Shown here: positions 13,719 through 53,902 of the stretch, in pieces | Position numbering within the stretch: position 1 is the stretch's first letter | Layout of the letters: each line of letters opens with the position of its first letter | Assembly: GCA_902774905.1 (NCBI GenBank) | Contig: CACYKF010000003.1 | Coordinates: forward strand, 2,174 to 66,173 | DNA: 64,000 bases | Direction of reading: 5' to 3' | Source of the DNA: an uncultured bacterium | GTDB lineage: Bacteria; Cyanobacteriota; Vampirovibrionia; Gastranaerophilales; Gastranaerophilaceae | Made by a program: the position numbers and the translations under genes | Notes under the pieces: model-generated | Told to the model about the DNA's origin: nothing | What the model saw: only the letters and a program-made list of their open reading frames with translations | Databases searched by the model: none

Positions 13719-15125
13719 TTAACCTTGGAATGCTTTAAACGAACGCTGCATGTTTTTATCTAATGCGCTTTTTACTGATTCGTATTCTGTCTGCATAGCG
13801 TTGTGTTCAGAATCTAAAAGGCTTATTTTTCTTTGATATTTTTCATCTTTAGCATTAATTTCTGCGGTTTTTCTCTGGTATTCCGCTTCGGCTTGTGAAA
13901 TCGCTTTATTATTATCAGATTCGACAATCTCAGAAATAGAAGAATAAATTTTGCCGCTCCAAGTAATTCCTTTCAAGTTGAAAGTAAACGGATTTTCATT
14001 TGAAGCAACTGTCATATTTTCATTTGAATAAGCCGCCTGTTCGATATTTACAAGACCTTTTGACAAAGCATTACTAATCCAAACACTGCTGTTTAATAAA
14101 CTTGCATCATCCGGCAATACTTTTTGACCGTCTTTTGCTTCTCTAATACCATCACTTATATTAAATGAAGAATAATTTTTAGAACCTGTATTATCGGTTG
14201 ACTGACCATTGATTCTGTACCAAAGATTTGTGTACCACTGTGCCTTTGTAGGATCATCATACTGATATGCCTGATTTGCAGACAATCCGAGTTCATTAAG
14301 TTCATCCTGGTATTGCGCTAATGCACTCTTATATTGTTGATAACCGTCATATAACTGTTTATATGTTATTGTCACCGCATTGCCGTTTGAATCAACTAAA
14401 CCGGGAACATTTCCACCGTTTGTCGACGGATTAGTTGCTATATCTATTAATTTAGATTCTTTTGCAGAAACATAAGATACTAATTTGGTAAATTTTTCAC
14501 GGTCACTTTCCATTTGGACTAAATGGATATTAAGATCAGCCTTTGAAACATTTTCACCGGCAGATTGGCGATTAACAATTACATTATATTTAGCCAATGA
14601 GTCAAGATAATTTCCCTGTGCCGCTAATTTATCAGCCGCCCAAGAACTTTGTGCATACCCGACACCAACATACTCTACTGCATTATTCCAATACTGTGCA
14701 AAGGCTCCCAAATTTTGATGAACATCTGTCCATGTAGATTCCAAATTTGCGGTTTTAAATGATCTATTAATACCATATTTCGTTAGAAAAGATTCCAAAT
14801 TAGGGGAACTTTCGTAATTTTTTATGTCTTTATTAGTTAATAATACTTTTCCTGAATTATTTGTTAATACATACTGATTTTTTCCATCTGCATACTCATA
14901 CATTGTAGCAACGGTCAAAGGTGTTTTAACCGAATCACCGGTTGAATCAAAGGAAATAAACGAATATTGAATATCATTTAACGCTGCAATATACACCTCA
15001 CTTGCTTCCTGAGACTGAGTTGCAAGACGCATTTTTGCGTTAGAAATCTGCTGAGATTCATACTCATTAGAGGTAAGTCGAGCCGTAATTGATAATAATC
15101 TTGCCTGTGAAGATGCTAATCCCAT
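13719..15125 (-). CDS. hypothetical protein with helical N/C termini and an aromatic/Asn-rich core (flagellin-like architecture)
   Basis: 468-aa ORF with a GAAAGGA RBS and no signal peptide. The N-terminal 50 and C-terminal 60 residues are heptad-like and charged (QARLLSITARL...; AEAEYQRKTAEINAKDEKYQRK...). No family recognised. Confidence 0.7.
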   Translation of the reverse strand: MGLASSQARLLSITARLTSNEYESQQISNAKMRLATQSQEASEVYIAALNDIQYSFISFDSTGDSVKTPLTVATMYEYADGKNQYVLTNNSGKVLLTNKDIKNYESSPNLESFLTKYGINRSFKTANLESTWTDVHQNLGAFAQYWNNAVEYVGVGYAQSSWAADKLAAQGNYLDSLAKYNVIVNRQSAGENVSKADLNIHLVQMESDREKFTKLVSYVSAKESKLIDIATNPSTNGGNVPGLVDSNGNAVTITYKQLYDGYQQYKSALAQYQDELNELGLSANQAYQYDDPTKAQWYTNLWYRINGQSTDNTGSKNYSSFNISDGIREAKDGQKVLPDDASLLNSSVWISNALSKGLVNIEQAAYSNENMTVASNENPFTFNLKGITWSGKIYSSISEIVESDNNKAISQAEAEYQRKTAEINAKDEKYQRKISLLDSEHNAMQTEYESVKSALDKNMQRSFKAFQG

Positions 15126-15350
15126 GATAATTTATTCCTTTCAGAGTTACTCTTATATGTTGTGACGGAACAAAGAGAGTGTTTCTTTAATATTTTCAGA
15201 CAAATGTAAAGTTATGTAACAAAAAATATATAAATTGAATATAAAAAGTCAATATTTTTTTAAGTGATGTTTTTATATATATGTAAGAAATAAATAAAGA
15301 AAAAAGAAAAATCGTTTAATTAAGAGTTTTAAGAAGAGAGGAACAAAACT

Positions 15351-17018: not shown

Positions 17019-17666
17019 TTATACAATTTTGTACTTTAAAGCCTTTAAAGCAGCCTGAAGTCTGTCATCAACCTCAAGTTTTTGTAAAATATTTGCAACA
17101 TGCGCTTTTGTTGTATTTACACTTATAACAAGATGTTGGGCAATTTCCATATTACTATACCCCTCAGTCATAAGTTTTAAAATCTGTGCTTCTCTTGTTG
17201 TTAAATCATAGTCTTTATAATTCGTGTCCTTATCATCTATTTTTGTCGATGATGTAGCCTGAAGAACAATATGCGCAATACTCGGATCAAACCATGCTGC
17301 ACCTTCTGAAACAGACTGAACAACCTGAACAAGTCGTTGAAGATTTATCTCTTTAGAACAATAAGCATTTGCACCGGCTTTTAAACTGTTTAAGACTTCT
17401 TTTTCATCATTATGAGAAGTTAAAATAATTATTTTTGCCTCGGGATTTATAGAGTGAATGGCTTGAGTAGTTTCAATACCGTTCATTTTAGGCAAGCCCA
17501 AATCCATAATGACCAAATCTATAGTATTATTTTTAAACACCTCAATAGCATCTTCTCCGCTTGATGCCTCATAAATAACATCAACATAATCCACATCTTC
17601 AAATGTTGTCTTTAAGCCAAAGCGAGTTAATTCATGGTCTTCAACAATTAATAAATTTTTCTTCAT
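17019..17666 (-). CDS. NarL/LuxR-family response regulator
   Basis: REC domain (LLIVEDHELTR, DLVIMDLGLP) plus a LuxR HTH (LTTREAQILKLMTEGYSNMEIAQHLVISVNTTKAHV). Confidence 0.9.
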   Translation of the reverse strand: MKKNLLIVEDHELTRFGLKTTFEDVDYVDVIYEASSGEDAIEVFKNNTIDLVIMDLGLPKMNGIETTQAIHSINPEAKIIILTSHNDEKEVLNSLKAGANAYCSKEINLQRLVQVVQSVSEGAAWFDPSIAHIVLQATSSTKIDDKDTNYKDYDLTTREAQILKLMTEGYSNMEIAQHLVISVNTTKAHVANILQKLEVDDRLQAALKALKYKIV

Positions 17667-43350: not shown

Positions 43351-44331
43351 CTACATTTTTACCCCAATTGCTTCAAATAAGCCGTTTATATTAAATACAT
43401 TATATTGAAATATTAAGCCTAAAATTGTACCAACCAAAACGAGTAAACCTAAGATTATTAAAGTGTCTTTTTTATCCCCGTTTTTACGAAGCAATACTAA
43501 AATACCAAGTCCGCCTGAAGTGCAAAGACCAGCAATCAATGAGCCAAAACTGATTGTATTTTTAACAAACAACATTGTAAGCATCACAGATATAGCACAA
43601 TTTGGGATTAACCCTATAAGCGAAACCAAAAATGGCTGAAGCGGAGAATTCATAAGGCAATATTTTGCCATAATTTCTTCTGAACCTGCTCTTGATAGAA
43701 TAAACGCAAGAACAACCGATATTAAAAATATAAATACAAAAATATTTAATGTATGCTTCAACGGATGAAGCCAAAAATCTCTTTTTCTTGATGCATGGAT
43801 AAGATGATGATGGCAACAGCCTTCAATTTCATCTTCATGAACTTTTTCAATTACAGGTTCTTTAGCGTTATATGTAACAAGCCAATCAACTATATATCCG
43901 ACAACTATCGCAACAGCAATTTTTACCGCAATAATAGGCAAAATTAACGGTGCTTTCTGCGGGTAAGTCAATAGAACAGGAATTGCCTCATCTGAAGTCG
44001 CCAGATAAACCGCAACCAATGTACCTCTTGAAAGTAACCGTCTTGTATAAACCGTACTTGCAATAACAGAAAAACCGCATTGAGGTAAAGATGCGAACAA
44101 ACTGCCAAACAAAGGTCCTACCTTTTTAATCCAAAAAACAAACAAATGACGTTTTTTGGCATAGTACCGTTCAATAAATTCAATAAGAACGAAAATGATA
44201 AATAAAAACGGTATCAAACCCAAACTGTCAATCAGTGCATCTTTCAAAAAATCAGGAATAAACTCTATCGGTTCAATAAGTTCTTCCGGCATATTCCATA
44301 TAAAATTCAATACTTCGGTTATTGCGCTCAT
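43351..44331 (-). CDS. polytopic membrane protein, putative metal permease (ArsP_2/10-TM-like)
   Basis: About 10 hydrophobic helices with a central loop HEDEIEGCCHHHLIH (Cys/His metal-binding look). The family assignment is from memory only. Confidence 0.6.
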   Translation of the reverse strand: MSAITEVLNFIWNMPEELIEPIEFIPDFLKDALIDSLGLIPFLFIIFVLIEFIERYYAKKRHLFVFWIKKVGPLFGSLFASLPQCGFSVIASTVYTRRLLSRGTLVAVYLATSDEAIPVLLTYPQKAPLILPIIAVKIAVAIVVGYIVDWLVTYNAKEPVIEKVHEDEIEGCCHHHLIHASRKRDFWLHPLKHTLNIFVFIFLISVVLAFILSRAGSEEIMAKYCLMNSPLQPFLVSLIGLIPNCAISVMLTMLFVKNTISFGSLIAGLCTSGGLGILVLLRKNGDKKDTLIILGLLVLVGTILGLIFQYNVFNINGLFEAIGVKM

Positions 44332-44340
44332 AATTATTCC

Positions 44341-47295
44341 TTACAACTTAAATCCTTTTTGAGTACAAAAATCATTCAGTTTTTCTTTTTCAAAAGTTAC
44401 ACAATTCTTGATATACGAATTATTGGTTTCTTTCACCACAAATTCCATCGCCTTTTCAAACATTACAGCAGAGCCGCGCAGATATTCTATCTGATCTTGT
44501 GTTGCAATTTTACCGATATCATAATAGTATTTGCCATACAAAAGATACAATCTTGAAAGCATATCATACATTTTACATTTTTTTGCAAGTTTCAATCCTT
44601 CTTCAATATTTATTTTTGCACTTGTATAATCAGCAATATTCATATAAGCCTTACCCAGTACAAAACGCAGTTTAGCGTTAAAGAAACAGTTATCAATATT
44701 AGGATTGACAGATATCTCTAAAGCCTGAGATGCAATATCTATTGCACTCTTTGAATTTTCTGTAACAATAGTAGCGTCAGCAATCAGATACCATGCCAGC
44801 AAAGCGCCTAATGCCATTTTTTCTTTTGCAAAATATGTAACCTGTTCGTTATAAATTTCAAGTGCCTGCTGAGCCTTGTTCTCATCTTTAAAAACTTTAC
44901 CGAGTAATGTTTTCAAAATATTTTTAGTAAAACTATCACCTGTATTGTTCGCAAAAGTAACTGCTTCAAAAAGTTCTTCTCTTATGCCTTCATAATCTCT
45001 TGTCATAAATTTGTTGATAATATAGACAAGATTAAGTCTTGAAACCGAAATTTCATCCATAAAATTGTCGCGGTAATGTGCATCAACATCCTGCAGTATA
45101 CGCATTGATGCTTTTATATCACCTTTCATAGTATTTGCATAAGCCTGAACAGTTTTTGCCCTTGCAATTAGTTGTTTGTCATTTATTTTATGTTTATCAA
45201 TAATGGTAAACAAATTTTTCAGGACATCAAAAGTTCTTTCATTACCCTGCAAAGCAAGAGCAGTAGCAAGAACAAGATAAACCTTTAGCCATGTATCGAA
45301 TAACAAACCTAACGGGAACAATTTGTTCAATCTTGGTTTTGCAAGATACTGATTTAAAATCGGTAAAACATCATTATCTGCAAGAGAAATAACTTCTCCG
45401 CAATTACCGATATCTAAAAGTGCAGATAATTTGGCGCTTATAATCATTGCCCTTTCAAGTTCCTGACCATCTTTTAATTTTCTCAAAACATTATCTACAC
45501 ATTCGACATTTCCGAAATAATTACCTGTTTTTAAGCAACATTTGGCAAGATATCCCAAAAGTTCAATCTCTTTTACTTCATCATTATTTGTCCTTGCATT
45601 TGATATAGCATCCGGCAGAAATTCCAATGCTTCCTGAGGATCGTATTCAGATAGCAGTTTCCCTAATTTCTCACTTATACTGTATCGGATATTTATAGTT
45701 TCATTTTCACTAAATTCATTCAATAAGGCAAGACATTGTTTCTGCGCTATTACATATAAATTTATATCTCCGATATAAGATGCCAAACGAGTAGTCTTTG
45801 TCCAAATATCAAACGCCATTCGTGTTTCTCTTAGGTTATGAGCAATCATAGCCATAGTTGCATTGGTATTAAGGTTAAAGACACTTATTGCTTTCCCTAT
45901 TTTGACATTTATATCATCAAATTCCGAATCTCTTGTTATGTTTTTTAATATAGTTTCCCAAAGCATCAGGTTGTTAAACTCATAGCAAATACTATCAAAT
46001 TTCCTGACAAAATCCGACATTTCGAGATAACTTAAAATCTCATTAAATTCTAATTCATTAAACCCGAAAATTTCCCTTATAAGAGTAATATTTATCTTAT
46101 CTCCTAAAATGGCAGAAGCGCAAAGAACCTTATGCGCAATTTTATTTACCTTTTTAAGAGTTGAAAGTCTTTCTTTTATCAACTGAGAGAAATCATCCGG
46201 TAAAACAAACGCTTTGTCATTTATCTGACAGTCATATACATAACTGTAAGCCTGCTGAATATATGCGAGATTTCCGTTTGCCTTTTCATTTATGAGTTCT
46301 TTTTCTCTTTCGGATACATAACCTTCCGCATCTTTATTTATTTTTACATCATTTATAAGTTCTTCTTCTGTGACAGGTCTTAAGTTAATATCCTCAAAAG
46401 AATTTATGTTCTTGTTATCAAACCCGAAAAAACCGCATATTGGCTTTGGTTCATTATAAATTGCAATAAATTTTAAGTTGTTCCAATTTTTGTCTTTACG
46501 AAGCAGATTTGTAAAAAATTCCGCGCTAAATCCGTCTATAAAATCAAAATTATCAACAACAAAAATAAATTTACCACTCGATATAAATGCATCAAATATT
46601 TTGTTCAAAATTGAATAAGTGCGCTTTTTGTTAATTATGATATCTTCGTAATTTCCGTCATTAAAACTGTATATAAAATTGAACAAATCGGATACTTCAG
46701 GCGGTTGAAGGAATTTAAACTCTTTTGAGAAAAATTCATTGGCATTCTTTTTCAGTTCAGCATTGTTAATACAAAAATTCGGAAGACTAAAAAGATTTAA
46801 TAGCATATCCTGAACAACACCGCCCGGAGTTAATTGAGTAAGTGGAGTACATTTACCCAAGCATATATTTCTGTCCTCGATTTTTTTTAATGCTGAATAC
46901 AAAACAGAAGTTTTACCGCAACCTTTTTCTCCTGTTATAGAAATTACTTTTTTGTTTTTATCGGATAGAGCATTTGAAAGAATATCTATACCTTCTTTAA
47001 AAGAGCATAGTTTAGGATTAAACTGTAAAGGATTGGAAGGCTTACTTGTCCGTTTTTTCTTTTCAGGTTCACCAAATGATGCCCCACACTTTCTGCATTT
47101 TACAGCACTTGGGAAATTTACTCCGTTACATTTTGGGCAAATTTTCAACAGTTCCTGACCGCAATTTGAACATTTTAATTGTCCTGCAGGATTAACGGTC
47201 TTGCAGTTTGTGCATGATATACCCGTTCGTGTTTTACAATACGGGCATTTTAAAGCGTCATGTGCTATGTTATTTTTACAAACAGGACATTTCAT
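44341..47295 (-). CDS. triple zinc-ribbon / P-loop NTPase / TPR-like (STAND-type) protein
   Basis: Six CxxC pairs in residues 3-70, Walker A GEKGCGKT (46909-46932), Walker B-like FIFVVDNFDF, then about 650 aa of helical TPR-like repeats. Confidence 0.8.
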   Translation of the reverse strand: MKCPVCKNNIAHDALKCPYCKTRTGISCTNCKTVNPAGQLKCSNCGQELLKICPKCNGVNFPSAVKCRKCGASFGEPEKKKRTSKPSNPLQFNPKLCSFKEGIDILSNALSDKNKKVISITGEKGCGKTSVLYSALKKIEDRNICLGKCTPLTQLTPGGVVQDMLLNLFSLPNFCINNAELKKNANEFFSKEFKFLQPPEVSDLFNFIYSFNDGNYEDIIINKKRTYSILNKIFDAFISSGKFIFVVDNFDFIDGFSAEFFTNLLRKDKNWNNLKFIAIYNEPKPICGFFGFDNKNINSFEDINLRPVTEEELINDVKINKDAEGYVSEREKELINEKANGNLAYIQQAYSYVYDCQINDKAFVLPDDFSQLIKERLSTLKKVNKIAHKVLCASAILGDKINITLIREIFGFNELEFNEILSYLEMSDFVRKFDSICYEFNNLMLWETILKNITRDSEFDDINVKIGKAISVFNLNTNATMAMIAHNLRETRMAFDIWTKTTRLASYIGDINLYVIAQKQCLALLNEFSENETINIRYSISEKLGKLLSEYDPQEALEFLPDAISNARTNNDEVKEIELLGYLAKCCLKTGNYFGNVECVDNVLRKLKDGQELERAMIISAKLSALLDIGNCGEVISLADNDVLPILNQYLAKPRLNKLFPLGLLFDTWLKVYLVLATALALQGNERTFDVLKNLFTIIDKHKINDKQLIARAKTVQAYANTMKGDIKASMRILQDVDAHYRDNFMDEISVSRLNLVYIINKFMTRDYEGIREELFEAVTFANNTGDSFTKNILKTLLGKVFKDENKAQQALEIYNEQVTYFAKEKMALGALLAWYLIADATIVTENSKSAIDIASQALEISVNPNIDNCFFNAKLRFVLGKAYMNIADYTSAKINIEEGLKLAKKCKMYDMLSRLYLLYGKYYYDIGKIATQDQIEYLRGSAVMFEKAMEFVVKETNNSYIKNCVTFEKEKLNDFCTQKGFKL

Positions 47296-47300
47296 AATAC

Positions 47301-47918
47301 TTATTGTTCATCCAGAACTTTCTTTACTCTCTCAATCAAACCATAAATTCTTTTTGAAACTTCAGACTGAGAAATTCCGAGTTCTTCCGCCATTTGCCTT
47401 TGGGTAAGACATTTATCATACCTTAGGATAAAAATATCCATAAATTTCTGTTCAGGTTCTTCTTCATTTATTTGTTCAAGTGTATCGGCAATAAAATTGA
47501 CGACTTCGTTGTGTATTGCATTATCTTCAGGATTAAGAGGAATATTGATACTTTCGTAACCGGGACTGAAAGATGTATAATCATATAATGATACAGGTTC
47601 AGCCGTAGGTGCAGCAGTCAAATCCTCAACCGGCATAACAGACTCAATCGGAACCTCTGTTGTCGTCATATAACCTGATTTTGAACGACGCAATCTTCCT
47701 GAATCTTTCAATACATTAATTATAGAAGTAGTTACGACTTTGCGCAGATATGCTTCCAAAGTAGGCTGATTATCAATTGCACTTATAATAGATGCAGAAC
47801 GACGGCACGCCTCATTTAGAAAATCATCAAACAAATCCTCATTATTAGGAAATTTGCGATCATTTTTTATGATTTTTGATATTAAGTCTATCTTCTCCTG
47901 TGTAATTTCCACAAACAT
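47301..47918 (-). CDS. divergent sigma-70-family protein
   Basis: Region-4 HTH LTQRQMAEELGISQSEVSKRIYGLIERVKKVL and a region-2-like N-terminus (LEAYLRKVVTTSIINVLKDSGRLRR). A linker of about 70 aa separates them. Confidence 0.65.
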   Translation of the reverse strand: MFVEITQEKIDLISKIIKNDRKFPNNEDLFDDFLNEACRRSASIISAIDNQPTLEAYLRKVVTTSIINVLKDSGRLRRSKSGYMTTTEVPIESVMPVEDLTAAPTAEPVSLYDYTSFSPGYESINIPLNPEDNAIHNEVVNFIADTLEQINEEEPEQKFMDIFILRYDKCLTQRQMAEELGISQSEVSKRIYGLIERVKKVLDEQ

Positions 47919-47947: not shown

Positions 47948-50900
47948 TTACAAATAAATTTTAAGTATTACGGTTGTGCTCTGGTCATTTCCCACACTAT
48001 TTGGGGCTTTCAAGACCTTTAAAGTTTGGTTAACAGATTGTAACACAATATTATCTACCTGTGCCGAACCACTTGATAGCAATATTTTTGCCTGACTGAA
48101 TGAACCGTCCTTGTTGTAAAGAACACTCAGCCTAATCTGATCGGAATAAGTATAATCAGTAGCAAGAAGTAAATCACTTGACAAAGATGCTTTCAAACTC
48201 TTACCTGCAGACTGAAAATATTGTTTAAAGTTAGTATCAAAAGAAATATAATCAGGGACTTCCCAACTCAATTTTCTCACTGACAGGAATGAAGTTGCAG
48301 GAATAGGTTTTGCTGCCTGTTGAACTGCCGCATTTTGAACATTTTGACCTGTATTAGCATTAGAACCTGCATGTTGCGGGACTGTACTTTGTGACTGTGC
48401 ATTATTATTCATAACAACATTACTGTTATCAGGATTTACAGTAGGTACATCATTACCAAGATTGTTATTCAATGCCGTATTATCAGTAACTAACGGTTCA
48501 TTGTCTTTTGGTATAGGATTCATAAATTTTGAAACGGATAAAATTATTATACTTGCAATCATGATAACAAGTGCAAGTCCGCCAACACCAAGAACTATCG
48601 GTATTATTTTCCCTTTTTCATTCACTACGGGGGCTACACTATTTAATCCGTTATCATCAGGAATAACTGTGCTGTTATTGCTATAAAGTTCTTCTAAATG
48701 TTCATTACCGCCTGAAATATCAACTTTCGAAGAGTCTTTATTGATATCAATAAAAATTTCTCCCGGATTATGATTTTTATCTGTTATCACAAATGAATTT
48801 TCTTTTACCGTATCTGAATTGAGTAAAATATCTACGGCAGAATCATCAGCAAAATAATCGATTTCCGAATTATCGTCAATCGGTGAAACCGTTTCAAAGT
48901 TAGCAAAATCTTCTACTTCCGCAAAACTTACTTCTGCGTTGTATGGTTCAGTCGTCGGCACATCCCCAAAATCAGAAAAATTAACCAATCCGTATTCATC
49001 AGAATCTGTATGTTCTTCAACCTGTTCTGTCGGCAATTCGTCAAAATCGTGAGCATCTTCACTATATTCAGAAAGAACAGAACTTTTTTCCTCAGAAACA
49101 TATTCAGGAAGTTCAAGTCCTATACCATTAGAGATATCATCAAGGTCGGCTTTAAACTCCTCATTCCCATTAGCAGTAGTATCAGCCGATGCAGATTTAC
49201 TATCATTTATAATCAAATCATCATCTCCGGACTCAATATCATCACGAACTGAAGATAAATCTTCATCTAAAATATTTTCATCGGCATCATTTTCAGAAAC
49301 ATCGGAATCAATTTCTGAATTCTCAACATCTTTCGTTTCAGAATTTGCATCATTTATTTCCAAATCAATTGATTCAAAATTAATCGGGTCATCCGGAACT
49401 TCACCGGTTGGGACTTCAGAAATTTCACCTATATCAAAAACACTGTCATCATCAGAATCAAATATATCTGCAAATCCATCAGTTTCAACATCAAGAGTTT
49501 CACCAATATCAAATAACTCTTTGTTTTCAGAATCAGAACTCTCATCAGAAATATTTTTATCTTCATCATTAATAACAGTTTCTTCATCTGTTTTTAATAT
49601 ATTTTCATCGTTTAACTCTTCACCAGATAGCATAGTATTTTCGGCATCTTCTGAAATATCAGGTTCGATAATTAAAGACTCCGTTTCGGAAATATCAGCA
49701 TCTTCTGACAACACAACATCATCATTCGTATCATCATTTTGTTCTTCAATCTCACTTACTTCAATCTCACTTTCAGAAGGTTCTTCAGTAATAAAATCCT
49801 CAAACCCGTCTAAATTCACATCTGAATCAAAATTATCCAAATTTAATTCTTCTTCATCCAAAGTCGAATCTTCTGAATCAAATGTTTGTTCAGACTCTAA
49901 AGTTTTATCTTGAATATCAGCTGTTTCTTCAGAAATTTCTTCAGTTTTATCTGTTTCATCAAATTTTTCTACAATTTCAGAAATCGATTCATCCGAAATT
50001 TGTTGTTTCGGCTCATTAGGACTATCATCCACAATATTATCCTGAATTGAATTTTCTGTAACACTTTGTTCTTCTGATATCCCAACATCTGAAGACGAAT
50101 CTTCAATATCTGCTGCAGAAGTATTATCAGATATTTCATCAAGAGTTAAATCTTCTTCTGACAAATCCAAGTTCGGAAAATCAGAGATATCTTCCCCGAA
50201 AATATCATCTTCTTCTACAATATTTTCGGGTTCAACAGAGTTATCGGCTTTTGGCACATCTTCAATAACTGCGTCATACTGATTTTCATTTTGGGATGTA
50301 GAAGTTTGGCTATCCTCATCAGAAATTTCTGCTTCTTTTTCGAAATTTTCAGATAACTCAATATCTTCTTCTAAAACATTTGTCACATCAATATTGTCTG
50401 ATATACCGTCATCAAGTAATTCTTCTGCAGCATCAGCAATTGTTTCCCCTGCCATGCCTGCAAGTTCTATTGCTTCATCGGAGACTGCATTTGCCCCAAA
50501 TACTTTTGCATCTTCAACTGCTCCTGCAACCGCAGATATAGTGTCTGCCGCCCCTGCTGCAAATTTTACCCCGTCAACAACATCATCAAGCAAACTGTCG
50601 CCGTTTAAATCCTGAGGTTTTTCATCCTTAACCTCATTTGCAGATTCGGTATCTTGCACCTCATCAACAGGAGCATCAGTCATATTTACAAAATCATCAA
50701 AATCTACAACTTCATTTTGGGCAAGACTGTTTGATTTTGATACTTGCAAAGCCGTTGCTACCCTTGAAGCAAGAGTTTCAAAATTATCGTATTCAAGCAC
50801 CGCATTTCTTAAACTGTTGCTTTTTAGAAGAAGAGAAATAAATTCATTAAATTCTTCATCAGTTACATCATGATCCGCAACAGCAACAGAAAGTTCACGA

Positions 50901-51436
50901 CCTCGCAAAATTTGTTCTTCTGTAAGATTTTTATCGGTTGTACCGCTATAAGCATTGATAAAATCTATCATTTCAAACGGGGATTTCAACTTTTCTGGTT
51001 CAAGGAAATAATATTCACCATTACAGTTATTTAAATTGATTGCAGACGGTTCAAAAAAACCGATAAAATTAATTCGCTGAAAACTTTTGTCATATTTTAG
51101 AACAGCATAAATGTCAGGAACAATACCTAAATCATAATGAGATTTTGGAATAAAAATTTCATATTCATTGAAAATTACTCTGACATCTATATGGATATTT
51201 TTTAATATAACATCTGCAATATCAACTTTTTCAACAATTCTTTTTATGGAATGAATACTCGCAATACCATCTGTATCTACACCTAACTTTTCAAGATATG
51301 AAATAATAGCCTCTGACCCGATTACATTAAAAAATATTCTGTTTTGAACAGAAGTATCAATAAAATTAGATGCCATAAATTGCGCTTCTGCCAAATTATC
51401 CTTTGTAATTTCAACTAATTCTGTTTCTAAATTCAT
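47948..51436 (-). CDS. 1162-aa acidic single-pass membrane protein with TonB_C-like C-terminus
   Basis: AGGGGAG RBS. Globular N-domain (about 240 aa), a D/E/S/N-rich region (about 48737-50719), TM helix IIPIVLGVGGLALVIMIASIIILSV (48533-48607), an N/Q linker and a C-terminal ...DGSFSQAKILLSSGSAQVDNIVLQSV... Confidence 0.8.
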   Translation of the reverse strand: MNLETELVEITKDNLAEAQFMASNFIDTSVQNRIFFNVIGSEAIISYLEKLGVDTDGIASIHSIKRIVEKVDIADVILKNIHIDVRVIFNEYEIFIPKSHYDLGIVPDIYAVLKYDKSFQRINFIGFFEPSAINLNNCNGEYYFLEPEKLKSPFEMIDFINAYSGTTDKNLTEEQILRGRELSVAVADHDVTDEEFNEFISLLLKSNSLRNAVLEYDNFETLASRVATALQVSKSNSLAQNEVVDFDDFVNMTDAPVDEVQDTESANEVKDEKPQDLNGDSLLDDVVDGVKFAAGAADTISAVAGAVEDAKVFGANAVSDEAIELAGMAGETIADAAEELLDDGISDNIDVTNVLEEDIELSENFEKEAEISDEDSQTSTSQNENQYDAVIEDVPKADNSVEPENIVEEDDIFGEDISDFPNLDLSEEDLTLDEISDNTSAADIEDSSSDVGISEEQSVTENSIQDNIVDDSPNEPKQQISDESISEIVEKFDETDKTEEISEETADIQDKTLESEQTFDSEDSTLDEEELNLDNFDSDVNLDGFEDFITEEPSESEIEVSEIEEQNDDTNDDVVLSEDADISETESLIIEPDISEDAENTMLSGEELNDENILKTDEETVINDEDKNISDESSDSENKELFDIGETLDVETDGFADIFDSDDDSVFDIGEISEVPTGEVPDDPINFESIDLEINDANSETKDVENSEIDSDVSENDADENILDEDLSSVRDDIESGDDDLIINDSKSASADTTANGNEEFKADLDDISNGIGLELPEYVSEEKSSVLSEYSEDAHDFDELPTEQVEEHTDSDEYGLVNFSDFGDVPTTEPYNAEVSFAEVEDFANFETVSPIDDNSEIDYFADDSAVDILLNSDTVKENSFVITDKNHNPGEIFIDINKDSSKVDISGGNEHLEELYSNNSTVIPDDNGLNSVAPVVNEKGKIIPIVLGVGGLALVIMIASIIILSVSKFMNPIPKDNEPLVTDNTALNNNLGNDVPTVNPDNSNVVMNNNAQSQSTVPQHAGSNANTGQNVQNAAVQQAAKPIPATSFLSVRKLSWEVPDYISFDTNFKQYFQSAGKSLKASLSSDLLLATDYTYSDQIRLSVLYNKDGSFSQAKILLSSGSAQVDNIVLQSVNQTLKVLKAPNSVGNDQSTTVILKIYL

Positions 51437-51604
51437 GCTTAATCTCCCCTTCTAAATATATAGATGACACCTAAAAAAAAATTATTCCAAAAATATTGTA
51501 AATTTTTGTAAAGATATTGGAAAAATGCTCATTATTTTGTCAAAATCATAAAGTCAGTTGTTTTTATATGCTTGTGAAGTAAATGTGTTCAAGGAGGTTT
51601 TCTC

Positions 51605-52027
51605 ATGTCTTTAAGTGTTAATCCTGTTTCGAGTGTAAGTTTTCGTGCTCAAGAAGTCGTTCAACCAAGTGCAGAAGATATTTTAAGCCGTCCGGGGGCT
51701 TTTGCAAAACCGGAAACTACATACTCACAACCTGCAAAGAAAAAACATACTTTTCTTAAATATGTAGCAGGAGCATTGATTACAGCAGGGGTATTAGCAG
51801 GAGCATTATACGGTCTTAAAAGAGGATTCCCTAATGTATTTAAAGTCACTGAAGACATAAGCAAACTTGAAGGTGGGGTTCTCAAAAAAACACAGGCTTA
51901 CATTACAACAGGTGTGGCAAAAGGTGCCGAATATGTCGAAAAATGCGCTGATAAAGTTGTTAATTATTCCACAAAAGGATGGGATAAATTAAAAGGATTA
52001 TTTAAAAGTACAAAACCCGATGCTTAA
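51605..52027 (+). CDS. hypothetical small membrane-anchored protein
   Basis: 140 aa with a strong AAGGAGG RBS and one TM helix (YVAGALITAGVLAGALYGL). Its terminator is at 52045-52073. Confidence 0.6.
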   Translation: MSLSVNPVSSVSFRAQEVVQPSAEDILSRPGAFAKPETTYSQPAKKKHTFLKYVAGALITAGVLAGALYGLKRGFPNVFKVTEDISKLEGGVLKKTQAYITTGVAKGAEYVEKCADKVVNYSTKGWDKLKGLFKSTKPDA

Positions 52028-52044
52028 TCATAACTTAATAAATA

Positions 52045-52073
52045 AAAAGACTCTTTAAAAAGAGTCTTTTTTA
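52045..52073 (+). terminator. intrinsic terminator
   Basis: aaagactctt-taaa-aagagtcttt hairpin followed by a T-run. Confidence 0.75.
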
Positions 52074-52156: not shown

Positions 52157-53902
52157 ATGAGTTATACACTACCTTATACTTTTGTCCCCGGAACAAAAGC
52201 AAGAGCGCAGGAAGTAAATGCCGATTTTTCAGCAATAATTGACGCACTTGATGATACAGATGTAAGAAAAGTTAATACCGATTTTTCAAATATATCCTCA
52301 GAAGCAATAGACATTATAAAAAATAATTCTTCTATTCGTAACCTTGGGGAACTTATTTTTTCACCTATTCCTTTAACAGATTCAAGTCTTCACCTGCTTG
52401 ATGGCAGCACATTGCAAAGAACGGGAATATATGGAGATTTTGTAAGTTATATTGCAAAAAAATATAATACAGATGTTTCTTATAATTCAGATATGTTCTC
52501 TACAACCGGAACCGTATCCGTAACAGGCGACGGTATAGCAAGCGGTTTTAGTACAAGTAACTATGTAAAAGCCGAAGGGGCATATCCTATTGGAGAAGAT
52601 TTTGAATTATACCTGCCTTTTACACCTTCCCAAAAAACAAGCAACTCCGAAATATACAGAGCAACCGAATCAGGTTCATTCAGATTCGTATGTAACCAAA
52701 TAACCAACGGCTCTGTAATGTTTAATATGACAGACGGAATAAATGGCTTAGGATCACCTGTTTTAGTACAGAATACCAACCTTGTGGTTGGAGATAGTTA
52801 TATTTTAGTCATAAAGCAAAAAAATCATACATGTACATATGGATATATCCATAACGGACTGTACACACAAACAGGGACAAAATCAAATTTTCCAATAAAC
52901 ATTTCAACCATTACGAACTTTATGATTGGACGAGGAGCAAATACAGGTTTTGACGGTTCAATAGACTTAAAACAGTTTAAACTTGTTATAAATGGAGAAG
53001 AAATCATAAACGGAAGTAAAATTAATAATTACTTTACTGATGAAGAATCATGGCAGCAAAGTGTAAACAAATACGGAGAATGTGCAAAGTTTGTTTATAA
53101 TCCTACCGAAAACACTGTCAGACTTCCAAAGATAAAAGGATTAATTGAATACACAACATCTACATCGGAACTTGGGGAATTAACAGAAGCAGGGCTGCCT
53201 AATATCACCGGGAAACAAAATGAAGTCAGACGCGACGGAAATCCTAATAATGAGGGGGCGTTACATTCATCTCATACAAGGACAGGGGTATCGAGCGGAA
53301 CCGGAGGAGGTCAGGCTGCGGATATTTACTTTGATGCAAGTTGGTCAAACCCGATTTACGGCAAATCTTCAACCGTACAGCCTCAAACCGTAAAATATCT
53401 CGTTTATATTGTAGTAGCAAGTACCCCGAAAACTAATATTCAAGTCGATATTGACCAAATAGCCACAGACATAAATGGAAAACTTGACAAAGATTTGAGT
53501 AACATAGAAGTATCTAATATTCGTAATTTTGACGGTCAATGGACATATAAATACATGCTAATCAACAACTCTAATGTAAGCGCCGGCAAATACGATGTAG
53601 ACCTATCATCGTATCTTCCAGATGATCAATACAAGTATGAGGTGATTGTAAATATCTATGCTACACAAAATACAAGTACAACAAACGCCTTTGTTATTTT
53701 ATCTTCAAGTATTATAACAGAACCGGGGACATCCGGTACATTCTCCTGCCTTGCTGTAAATTCAAACAGCTCGGTATCCGGGACACAAACAATATTCCCT
53801 GTTGGTAATAACAAAATTTTATCTTATAGGCTTGGCGGACAAAATTTTGATGCAATGTTTATACGCTTATATGGTTACAGACGAATAGGTACAAATAATT
53901 AG
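52157..53902 (+). CDS. phage tail-collar / LamG-like fibre protein
   Basis: LGELIFSPIPL...LLDGSTL...YGDF (collar-like). A middle domain ends with GSIDLKQFKLVINGEEI (LamG/ConA-like ending). Then GLPNITGK...FDASWSNPIYGKSSTVQPQTV (tail-fibre-like). Confidence 0.65.
   Translation: MSYTLPYTFVPGTKARAQEVNADFSAIIDALDDTDVRKVNTDFSNISSEAIDIIKNNSSIRNLGELIFSPIPLTDSSLHLLDGSTLQRTGIYGDFVSYIAKKYNTDVSYNSDMFSTTGTVSVTGDGIASGFSTSNYVKAEGAYPIGEDFELYLPFTPSQKTSNSEIYRATESGSFRFVCNQITNGSVMFNMTDGINGLGSPVLVQNTNLVVGDSYILVIKQKNHTCTYGYIHNGLYTQTGTKSNFPINISTITNFMIGRGANTGFDGSIDLKQFKLVINGEEIINGSKINNYFTDEESWQQSVNKYGECAKFVYNPTENTVRLPKIKGLIEYTTSTSELGELTEAGLPNITGKQNEVRRDGNPNNEGALHSSHTRTGVSSGTGGGQAADIYFDASWSNPIYGKSSTVQPQTVKYLVYIVVASTPKTNIQVDIDQIATDINGKLDKDLSNIEVSNIRNFDGQWTYKYMLINNSNVSAGKYDVDLSSYLPDDQYKYEVIVNIYATQNTSTTNAFVILSSSIITEPGTSGTFSCLAVNSNSSVSGTQTIFPVGNNKILSYRLGGQNFDAMFIRLYGYRRIGTNN

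Follow-up and report, generated by a model that had tools for sequence, protein, structure and literature searches.

A large acidic protein encoded beside a sigma factor gene

We analyzed a stretch of 64,000 nucleotides (nt), hereafter the window, from an uncultured bacterium of the family Gastranaerophilaceae (assembly GCA_902774905.1, contig CACYKF010000003.1, positions 2,174 to 66,173), and within it a large gene at positions 47948-51436 of the (-) strand, which starts with ATG, encodes a protein of 1162 amino acids (aa) and is the first gene of a conserved three-gene operon. A preliminary description, made without database searches, had reported at this location an open reading frame (ORF) with an acidic low-complexity region of about 650 residues, and this region is real: the net charge amounts to -222 for the complete protein and to -200 for aa 241-900 (D 17.3%, E 16.2%, S 10.6%, N 7.1%, K+R 3.2%). 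The most informative fact about the gene was not used by that description: the next gene encodes a sigma factor, within an operon conserved across the order.

The sigma factor gene (47301-47918, (-) strand) is located 29 nt 3' of the large gene and encodes a protein of 205 aa, which was assigned to the sigma-70/extracytoplasmic function (ECF) type according to TIGR02937 (67.5 bits, with a cutoff of 42.9). The Pfam model Sigma70_r4 reached 23.8 bits, just under its gathering score of 24.1. Region 2 gave no match in Pfam; the one model that spans both region 2 and region 4 is that of the ECF superfamily in NCBIfam. Between the region-2-like and region-4 parts, the protein shows a poorly conserved stretch of about 60 residues. 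The third gene (44341-47295, (-) strand) encodes a protein of 984 aa with a zinc ribbon (DZR), an AAA_16/STAND NTPase domain and TPR-like repeats according to Pfam (1.5e-8 for DZR and 2.8e-5 for AAA_16), and three zinc ribbons are found at its N-terminus. The identity of this STAND protein across loci ranges between 47 and 99%, and it is more conserved than the large acidic protein. No match was found by phmmer between the STAND protein and the PDB.

Gene order was compared in 81 loci of 20 kb, 74 of which contained enough DNA for this purpose. The order large gene, sigma factor gene and STAND gene was found in all 74, with the three genes co-oriented and tightly spaced (median intergenic distances of about 40 and 14 nt); the outer flanks of the trio vary between loci. 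The intergenic gaps of the trio showed no terminator-like site, and we infer that its genes are co-transcribed from one promoter. Neither the large protein nor the STAND protein matched the defence-system models of PADLOC; a reading of the locus as a defence island is unsupported, given this result and the single-copy, order-wide distribution.

Domain organization of the protein

The protein is predicted to consist of five consecutive parts, all given here on the (-) strand. The first is a cytoplasmic N-terminal globular domain of aa 1-235 (50732-51436), delimited with an AlphaFold2 (AF2) model, family matches to PF08852 and hhalign. It is followed by a polyanionic disordered tether of aa 236-940 (48617-50731), non-repetitive, with about 33% D+E, about 3% K+R and a net charge of about -200. 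A single transmembrane (TM) helix of aa 944-969 (48530-48607), identified by hydropathy and by comparison of the TM sequences of the family, is Gly-rich (G-x-G-G) and lacks His. A periplasmic linker of aa 970-1045 (48302-48529), rich in N, P, T, A and Q according to family comparison, leads to a periplasmic TonB/TolA C-terminal-like domain of aa 1046-1162 (47951-48301), recognized by AF2, Foldseek and Pfam matches in the family. Furthermore, two islands stand out in the tether when full-length sequences of 38 homologues are aligned, one at aa 286-336 (50429-50581) and one juxtamembrane at aa 871-940 (48617-48826), the latter including the basic flank on the N-terminal side of the TM helix.

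In a charge-hydropathy plot, aa 241-943 and aa 970-1045 fall among disordered sequences, whereas the two terminal domains plot as folded. An origin of the acidic region by tandem repetition was ruled out, only three two-copy micro-duplications being detected. On the opposite (+) strand, Ser-rich and Ala-rich ORFs are found within the gene (49521-49913, 50394-50615 and 48462-48686); these are shadow ORFs of the GA-rich acidic codons and not genes.

Terminal domains and membrane topology

All 23 N-domains of the family that were compared matched PF08852 (DUF1822), with a best E-value of 1.4e-10, over profile positions 1-161 of 370; the whole 370-position model is not covered. The N-domain of the window protein alone scored 17.9 bits (E 0.0018), below the gathering threshold of 25 bits, and the full-length protein gave no match to PF08852 at E <= 1. 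Precomputed PF08852 assignments exist for about 20 of 120 listed homologues. In addition, hhalign of the N-domain profile against an annotated Nostoc DUF1822 protein gave a probability of 91% (E 9.4e-7) over query residues 7-167. The N-domain thus appears to be a divergent, partial DUF1822 N-terminal module.

The AF2 model of the N-domain (predicted local distance difference test, pLDDT, 84.9; predicted TM-score, pTM, 0.80) shows an alpha/beta core followed by three helices. Thirty-one residues are invariant, including D75, D84, R86, P97, K98, H100 and the motif E215-x-DNFE. The N-domain profile matched no PDB sequence even at E <= 10. The best Foldseek neighbours of the model, all non-significant (E >= 0.2, TM-score about 0.2), are the PD-(D/E)xK nucleases HincII, AspBHI and influenza PA-N. 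The invariant D75 and D84-x-R86 lie on adjacent strands of the model and align with D...E-x-R in the Nostoc DUF1822 protein. The DUF1822 fold may possibly be nuclease-derived, which we take as a hint and not as a result.

At the other end of the protein, the C-domain scored 13.5-18.8 bits (E 0.013-0.1) against TonB_C, TonB_2 and TIGR01352 (PF03544/PF13103), with cutoffs of 22-27. Matches to TonB_2 or TonB_C were obtained for 22 of 23 family C-domains, with a best E-value of 1.8e-7. The domain is well conserved, with a mean column identity of 76%, and its AF2 model has a pLDDT of 89.9. In the PDB, Foldseek matched this model best to the TonB C-terminal domain (CTD) of H. pylori (E 1.6e-3, probability 1.00), and TolAIII and FusB came next; TM-scores were 0.48/0.53. 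The modeled C-domain has the TonB/TolA C-terminal fold, yet the protein does not appear to be a TonB, because the defining N-terminal SxxxH anchor was looked for and is absent.

In a hydropathy scan, the sole hydrophobic 19-residue window of the protein lies within aa 941-975. The protein N-terminus is acidic and lacks a hydrophobic stretch, so that no signal peptide is predicted. The 15 residues before the TM helix form the only basic patch of the protein, with K+R 3.0 versus D+E 0.7 across the 38 homologues, and after the helix the values are K+R 1.8 versus D+E 1.9. TonB/TolA-fold domains are periplasmic. The basic N-terminal flank of the helix, the missing signal peptide and the periplasmic nature of the TonB/TolA fold together argue for an N-in/C-out orientation, from which we infer that the acidic region and the DUF1822 head are cytoplasmic and that the TonB-like domain is periplasmic. 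None of the 38 homologues shows His or SxxxH in the TM helix. The periplasmic linker ranges between 53 and 84 aa in the family and is near-neutral in charge (Pro 10.6%, Asn 13.9%, Thr 9.6%).

These results bear out what the preliminary description observed and support its interpretation in part. Its single TM helix, placed at 48533-48607, differs by three nucleotides at one end from ours, and its statement that a signal peptide is missing was borne out by the N-terminal sequence. A cytoplasmic acidic region, as it proposed, is supported by the lack of a signal peptide and by the basic residues that precede the TM helix across the 38 homologues. The TonB_C-like end that it described holds at the level of the family, with the Pfam matches of 22 of 23 members and a TonB-CTD as the top Foldseek result, while the window protein itself remains sub-threshold. 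Its guess of a DUF1822 relationship likewise holds for the family, in view of the 23 of 23 members matching PF08852 and the hhalign result.

Composition and conservation of the acidic tether

The tethers of the homologues range between 364 and 923 aa, with net charges of -90 to -293, D+E of 26-35% and K+R of 1-5%. Relatives at 70-80% identity already differ in tether length by tens of residues, which indicates that length is plastic while composition is held. The acidic region, whose length the preliminary description had proposed to compare between strains, therefore varies in length and is nevertheless a conserved feature of the family rather than a strain-specific expansion. That description had named three outcomes that would speak against its view, namely no profile match for the terminal domains, an acidic region outside the cell and homologues without this region; none of the three was found.

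The two islands are the positionally conserved parts of the tether. That of aa 286-336 is Ala/Gly-rich and ends in S-x-E-A-I-x-L-A-G-x-(A/S)-G-(D/E). The juxtamembrane island of aa 871-940 contains V-x-ENS-x-VISDK-x-F-x-x-GEI-x-IDIN, then EHLEELYN, then LNNDVR or LQxPGR, and leads through the basic patch into the TM helix; in the 38-homologue alignment its aa 871-900 are free of gaps, with a mean identity of 54%.

The recurrent aromatic-acidic motifs emphasized in the preliminary description mostly reflect composition. In the window protein, 23 of 34 aromatic residues touch an acidic residue versus 18.5 expected from composition-preserving shuffles (p = 0.088), and most of the motifs are not position-conserved. 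The motifs were rejected as specific short linear motifs, since they do not exceed composition in the window protein and mostly do not keep their positions. In the 38 non-redundant homologues the excess of aromatic-acid adjacency is modest (mean z about 2), no clustering of aromatic residues was seen in the acidic region relative to shuffles, and its hydrophobic residues are spread more evenly than by chance (mean z = -2.8). The conserved charge and free length of the tether most likely fit an electrostatic or entropic leash that would hold the head off DNA and membrane.

The upstream region contains an ECF-like core and an HLR1-type repeat

About 27 nt upstream of the ATG, an ECF-type promoter-like element, GGAATA-N14-GTCATC, is found at 51463-51488 of the (-) strand; it is present in a single copy in the 64-kb window, with 0.07 copies expected. 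It resembles ECF promoters of the GGAAT/GTC type, going by the general ECF consensus. The exact element occurs once per locus and at the same place in 66 of the 81 loci, and its spacing is identical in 73 of 74. Six nt further upstream lies an HLR1-type direct repeat, TTTACAAA-AA-TTTACAAT (51495-51512, (-) strand), which fits the RpaB-binding HLR1 consensus (G/T)TTACA(T/A)(T/A)-N2-(G/T)TTACA(T/A)(T/A) (Riediger et al. 2019, PMC6525291). The strict HLR1 pattern is found upstream of the large gene in 75 of the 81 loci, and the composite of HLR1 and GGAATA-N14-GTCATC in 70. Furthermore, the 170-bp upstream region contains near-invariant blocks even where the proteins are only 40-45% identical.

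As in the activating HLR1/RpaB promoters (PMC6525291), the center of the repeat would lie about 45-50 nt before the inferred start; in contrast to those of cyanobacteria, this repeat belongs to a non-photosynthetic host, adjoins a core promoter of ECF-like appearance and is a putative RpaB site. A scan with a position weight matrix over the window and about 1.5 Mb of loci found no more copies of GGAATA-N14-GTCATC, and no regulon could be defined because of this. A scan for consensus sigma-70 promoters was uninformative (37 sites versus 42.6 expected). One response regulator was identified in the 64-kb window (17019-17666), and it is of the LuxR/GerE type. The near-invariant HLR1 before this operon in non-photosynthetic Melainabacteria suggests that an RpaB/HLR1 circuit exists outside photosynthetic cyanobacteria and is not tied to photosynthesis.

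Read on the opposite strand as TGTAA-N5-TGTAA, HLR1 repeats match twice in the window versus 0.34 expected; the second match is at 15205-15219 (match on the (+) strand, HLR1 on the (-) strand), upstream of a gene at 13719-15125. HLR1 repeats are also found upstream of unrelated genes in other loci, among others L001 (17226-17240), L016 (5595-5609 and 19726-19740), L050 (18737-18751) and L071 (16795-16809). Exact copies of the 16-mer HLR1 are located upstream of a Tolypothrix operon with a sigma-like gene followed by a DUF1822 gene (L086, 4255-4269), and upstream of a Planktothrix cluster containing PspA and sigma-DUF1822 genes (L085, 667-681). TGTAA-N5-TGTAA was rejected as a DUF1822-specific operator, since it is the general cyanobacterial HLR1/RpaB motif and is also found upstream of unrelated genes.

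DUF1822 and sigma factor genes in photosynthetic cyanobacteria

On cyanobacterial plasmids, a sigma-70-family gene encoding about 215 aa lies directly upstream of a DUF1822 gene in three of six annotated loci, and in one more according to NCBIfam. The plasmid DUF1822 proteins are soluble, with 250-385 aa, and their genes are followed by one encoding a CHAT, CHASE2, M48 or substrate-binding protein. A pairing of ECF-sigma and DUF1822 genes has been reported beside EACC2-caspase genes (Kaur, Iyer, Burroughs & Aravind 2021, PMC8195603), and beyond this paper the searchable literature returned no functional mention of DUF1822.

The proteins of that report share with the one described here a homologous N-module, an adjoining gene for a divergent sigma-70/ECF factor and a large signalling protein encoded by the third gene. 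However, in cyanobacteria the DUF1822 gene follows the sigma gene, whereas here the large gene precedes it, and the third gene encodes a CHAT, CHASE2 or M48 protein there and the DZR-STAND-TPR protein here. Moreover, only the first 160 or so profile positions are shared, fused here to the tether, the TM helix and the TonB-like domain. The sigma factor of the window shares only 14-17% identity with those adjacent to cyanobacterial DUF1822 genes, too little to establish the sigma factors as orthologues. The presence of a triad of sigma factor, DUF1822 protein and large signalling protein in both Gastranaerophilales and photosynthetic cyanobacteria points to a triad that is ancestral to the phylum, of which the Gastranaerophilales variant is set apart by its acidic tether, TM helix and TonB-like domain, by a gene order that is reversed and by a STAND protein as partner.

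Distribution of the family

A homologue search over 5.8 billion proteins retrieved 499 relatives, 120 of which were listed, and most of the 499 belong to the same length class. An exhaustive search with the N-domain profile gave 772 clusters at 50% identity. The listed homologues share the same plan of N-domain, acidic region, one TM helix and C-terminal part in 119 of 120 cases, as do full-length members of further 50%-identity clusters, with an N-domain of about 235 aa and a C-terminal part of 168-199 aa. When genomes were scanned, 184 at the species level carried the gene, and the best 80 of these are metagenome-assembled genomes (MAGs) of Gastranaerophilales/Melainabacteria from gut and rumen, plus a few otherwise-labelled bins. 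The hundreds of homologues with this plan are all ascribed to Gastranaerophilales, and every gut or rumen member of the order that was examined has the protein. The Gastranaerophilales are non-photosynthetic relatives of cyanobacteria. Contigs with the operon are also filed under other names (loci L017, L022, L025, L044, L055, L059 and L078), with the deposited labels Methanomethylophilaceae archaeon, Muribaculaceae, Acutalibacteraceae, Bacteroidaceae and Clostridium sp.; wrong binning or labelling of MAG contigs is the probable reason.

In databases the homologues are named "hypothetical protein", and one of them "TonB C-terminal domain-containing protein". The family was not found in the searchable literature. 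Its individual ingredients are already known; their combination in one protein and operon is unusual.

Genes flanking the operon

On the 3' side, a gene for an ArsP-type arsenic/heavy-metal efflux protein (43351-44331, (-) strand) starts 9 nt after the STAND gene, and the same arrangement is found in the closest relatives. In more distant genomes the ArsP-type gene is located elsewhere or on the other strand, and because of these differences it is not part of the conserved module. On the 5' side, two divergent genes, whose synteny across the order is partial, are located on the (+) strand. The first (51605-52027) belongs to a family of proteins of 131-140 aa with one TM helix, found by tblastn in 27 of the 81 loci. 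The second (52157-53902) encodes a protein of 581 aa with a weak match to Phage_tube (E 0.019), whose first 40-90 residues or so (MSYTLPYTFVPGTKA...VN.DF) are shared in 59 of the 81 loci, with variable length. Between the genes of the 140-aa and 581-aa proteins, a hairpin with a perfect 12-bp stem, resembling a bidirectional terminator, is found at 52044-52071.

A candidate regulator of the adjacent sigma factor

Regulation of the sigma factor is the most likely function of the large protein, because its gene always shares one operon with the sigma factor gene. With moderate confidence, we propose that the protein acts as a single-pass, anti-sigma-like trans-envelope regulator of the adjacent ECF-type sigma factor. 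The DUF1822 head would engage, hold or modulate the sigma factor in the cytoplasm, and the TonB-like domain would report the state of the envelope by docking there, through strand pairing, to a partner that could be an outer-membrane protein or else peptidoglycan. The acidic tether would keep the sigma-binding head mobile and electrostatically excluded from DNA and from the anionic membrane, and it may also act as a nucleic-acid mimic towards sigma-RNA polymerase. A signal would then free the sigma factor, possibly through cleavage in the Gly-rich helix or the juxtamembrane island or through input from the STAND ATPase, and the freed sigma factor would amplify its own operon, driven by the RpaB-type HLR1 repeat in the activator position together with the ECF-like GGAAT/GTC core.

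A single-pass, N-in/C-out arrangement is the topology of anti-sigma factors of the RseA, FecR and RsgI types. The protein is like these in its single TM helix with a cytoplasmic head and a periplasmic sensor domain, and in an ECF-sigma operon with a seemingly auto-regulated promoter; RsgI also has a long disordered segment. It differs from them in a DUF1822 head without detectable ASD or zf-HC2, a polyanionic cytoplasmic tether of about 700 aa, a periplasmic domain of TonB/TolA fold, a regulator gene placed first and a STAND ATPase as constant third partner. Several points weigh against an anti-sigma-like regulator. No anti-sigma domain (zf-HC2, RskA or ASD) was found in the Pfam and NCBIfam scans, a single family member matching Sigma_reg_N (0.049), and Foldseek of the N-domain model against the PDB gave nothing significant (best E 0.2). 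The order of regulator gene before sigma gene is the less usual one, known anti-sigma mechanisms need no acidic tether of 700 residues, and the constant STAND ATPase partner is left unexplained by the regulator model. In addition, the GGAAT/GTC element is assigned to the ECF class by its resemblance alone. We ascribe to the protein the predicted topology and the operon position of an anti-sigma factor and claim no membership of a known anti-sigma family.

Other roles have to be weighed against the same data. The tether itself might be the effector, a tethered nucleic-acid mimic occupying the DNA channel of a sigma-RNA polymerase holoenzyme recruited by the DUF1822 head, in the manner of region 1.1 of sigma-70 or of the RNA polymerase delta subunit with its acidic tail. 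The preliminary description had already suggested mimicry of DNA or of region 1.1, besides a scaffold function. This sub-mechanism is compatible with the anti-sigma-like regulator, and we consider it unlikely. It would suit the cytoplasmic location of the acidic region, the genetic coupling to a sigma factor, the lack of region 1.1 in ECF sigma factors, and the charge density (about -0.30 per residue) and composition that are kept despite a 2.5-fold variation in length and poor sequence conservation. However, D+E amounts to about 33% only, while known acidic mimics are much higher, an entropic or electrostatic spacer predicts a conserved composition equally well, and the hydrophobic residues are dispersed and not arranged in DNA-like periodic patterns. 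The tether is like region 1.1 and the delta tail in being disordered, strongly acidic and apparently tied to the transcription machinery, and unlike them in being about ten times longer, of lower charge density and membrane-tethered.

Two further explanations would give the sigma factor a different part. The protein could be a TonB/TolA-like envelope protein, structural or energy-transducing, whose periplasmic domain forms a bridge from the inner membrane to either peptidoglycan or the outer membrane, with a sigma factor that merely controls its expression and an acidic part serving as anchor, crowding brush or cation-binding buffer. The last 115 residues or so are indeed alike in fold and weakly similar in profile to TonB/TolA (PF03544, PF13103) and are periplasmic after a Pro-containing linker, one homologue carries the NCBI name of a TonB C-terminal domain protein, and the presence in essentially every genome of the order is like that of a core envelope component. 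We nevertheless find this role quite improbable, in that the TM helix lies at residue 944, near the C-terminus instead of the N-terminus, and the linker is rather short with its 53-84 aa. Some 940 residues on the cytoplasmic side lack an equivalent in TonB and TolA, and nothing ties the protein to ExbBD or TolQR. An ExbB/ExbD-type coupling is unsupported because the TM helices of all 38 homologues lack His and SxxxH, and the conserved DUF1822 head would stay unexplained, as would the fact that the gene is invariably accompanied by those of the sigma factor and the STAND protein. A membrane-tethered DNA binder of the ToxR or CadC kind, which have the same topology, with a DUF1822 head of PD-(D/E)xK-like nuclease fold that would use the long tether to get to promoter DNA and cooperate with the sigma factor, seems very unlikely. 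Such a role could draw on the best, non-significant Foldseek matches of the N-domain, which are restriction and PA-type endonucleases, on the invariant D75 and D84-x-R86 with D...E-x-R in Nostoc, and on the highly conserved blocks of promoter DNA. However, those matches reach no better than E >= 0.2 with TM-scores near 0.2, R replaces the catalytic K and no profile match to nuclease families was obtained, the RpaB-type HLR1 and the ECF-like core already account for the conserved DNA blocks, and DNA would repel a tether with a charge of -200.

The anti-sigma-like regulator also allows a wider proposal, which we put forward tentatively as a possible but rather doubtful one. DUF1822 could be an unrecognised class of sigma-binding (anti-sigma) domain across the Cyanobacteriota, built in Gastranaerophilales into a trans-envelope switch with a TonB-like sensor, STAND input and a DNA-mimicking leash. 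Equally tentative is the corresponding role of the leash, which might prevent the sigma factor, alone or within the sigma-RNA polymerase holoenzyme, from reaching the chromosome before it is released.

If true, the coupling to ECF-type sigma factors in both branches of the phylum would offer a first way into the function of DUF1822, which is widespread in cyanobacteria. It would also mean that a sigma-regulatory protein lacking the ExbBD-coupling helix can use a domain of TonB/TolA fold as its periplasmic module. Among conserved regions of bacterial cytoplasmic proteins that are both polyanionic and disordered, the acidic tether is one of the largest, and it has a clear genetic context, and the role of long acidic tethers in bacterial signalling becomes directly testable.

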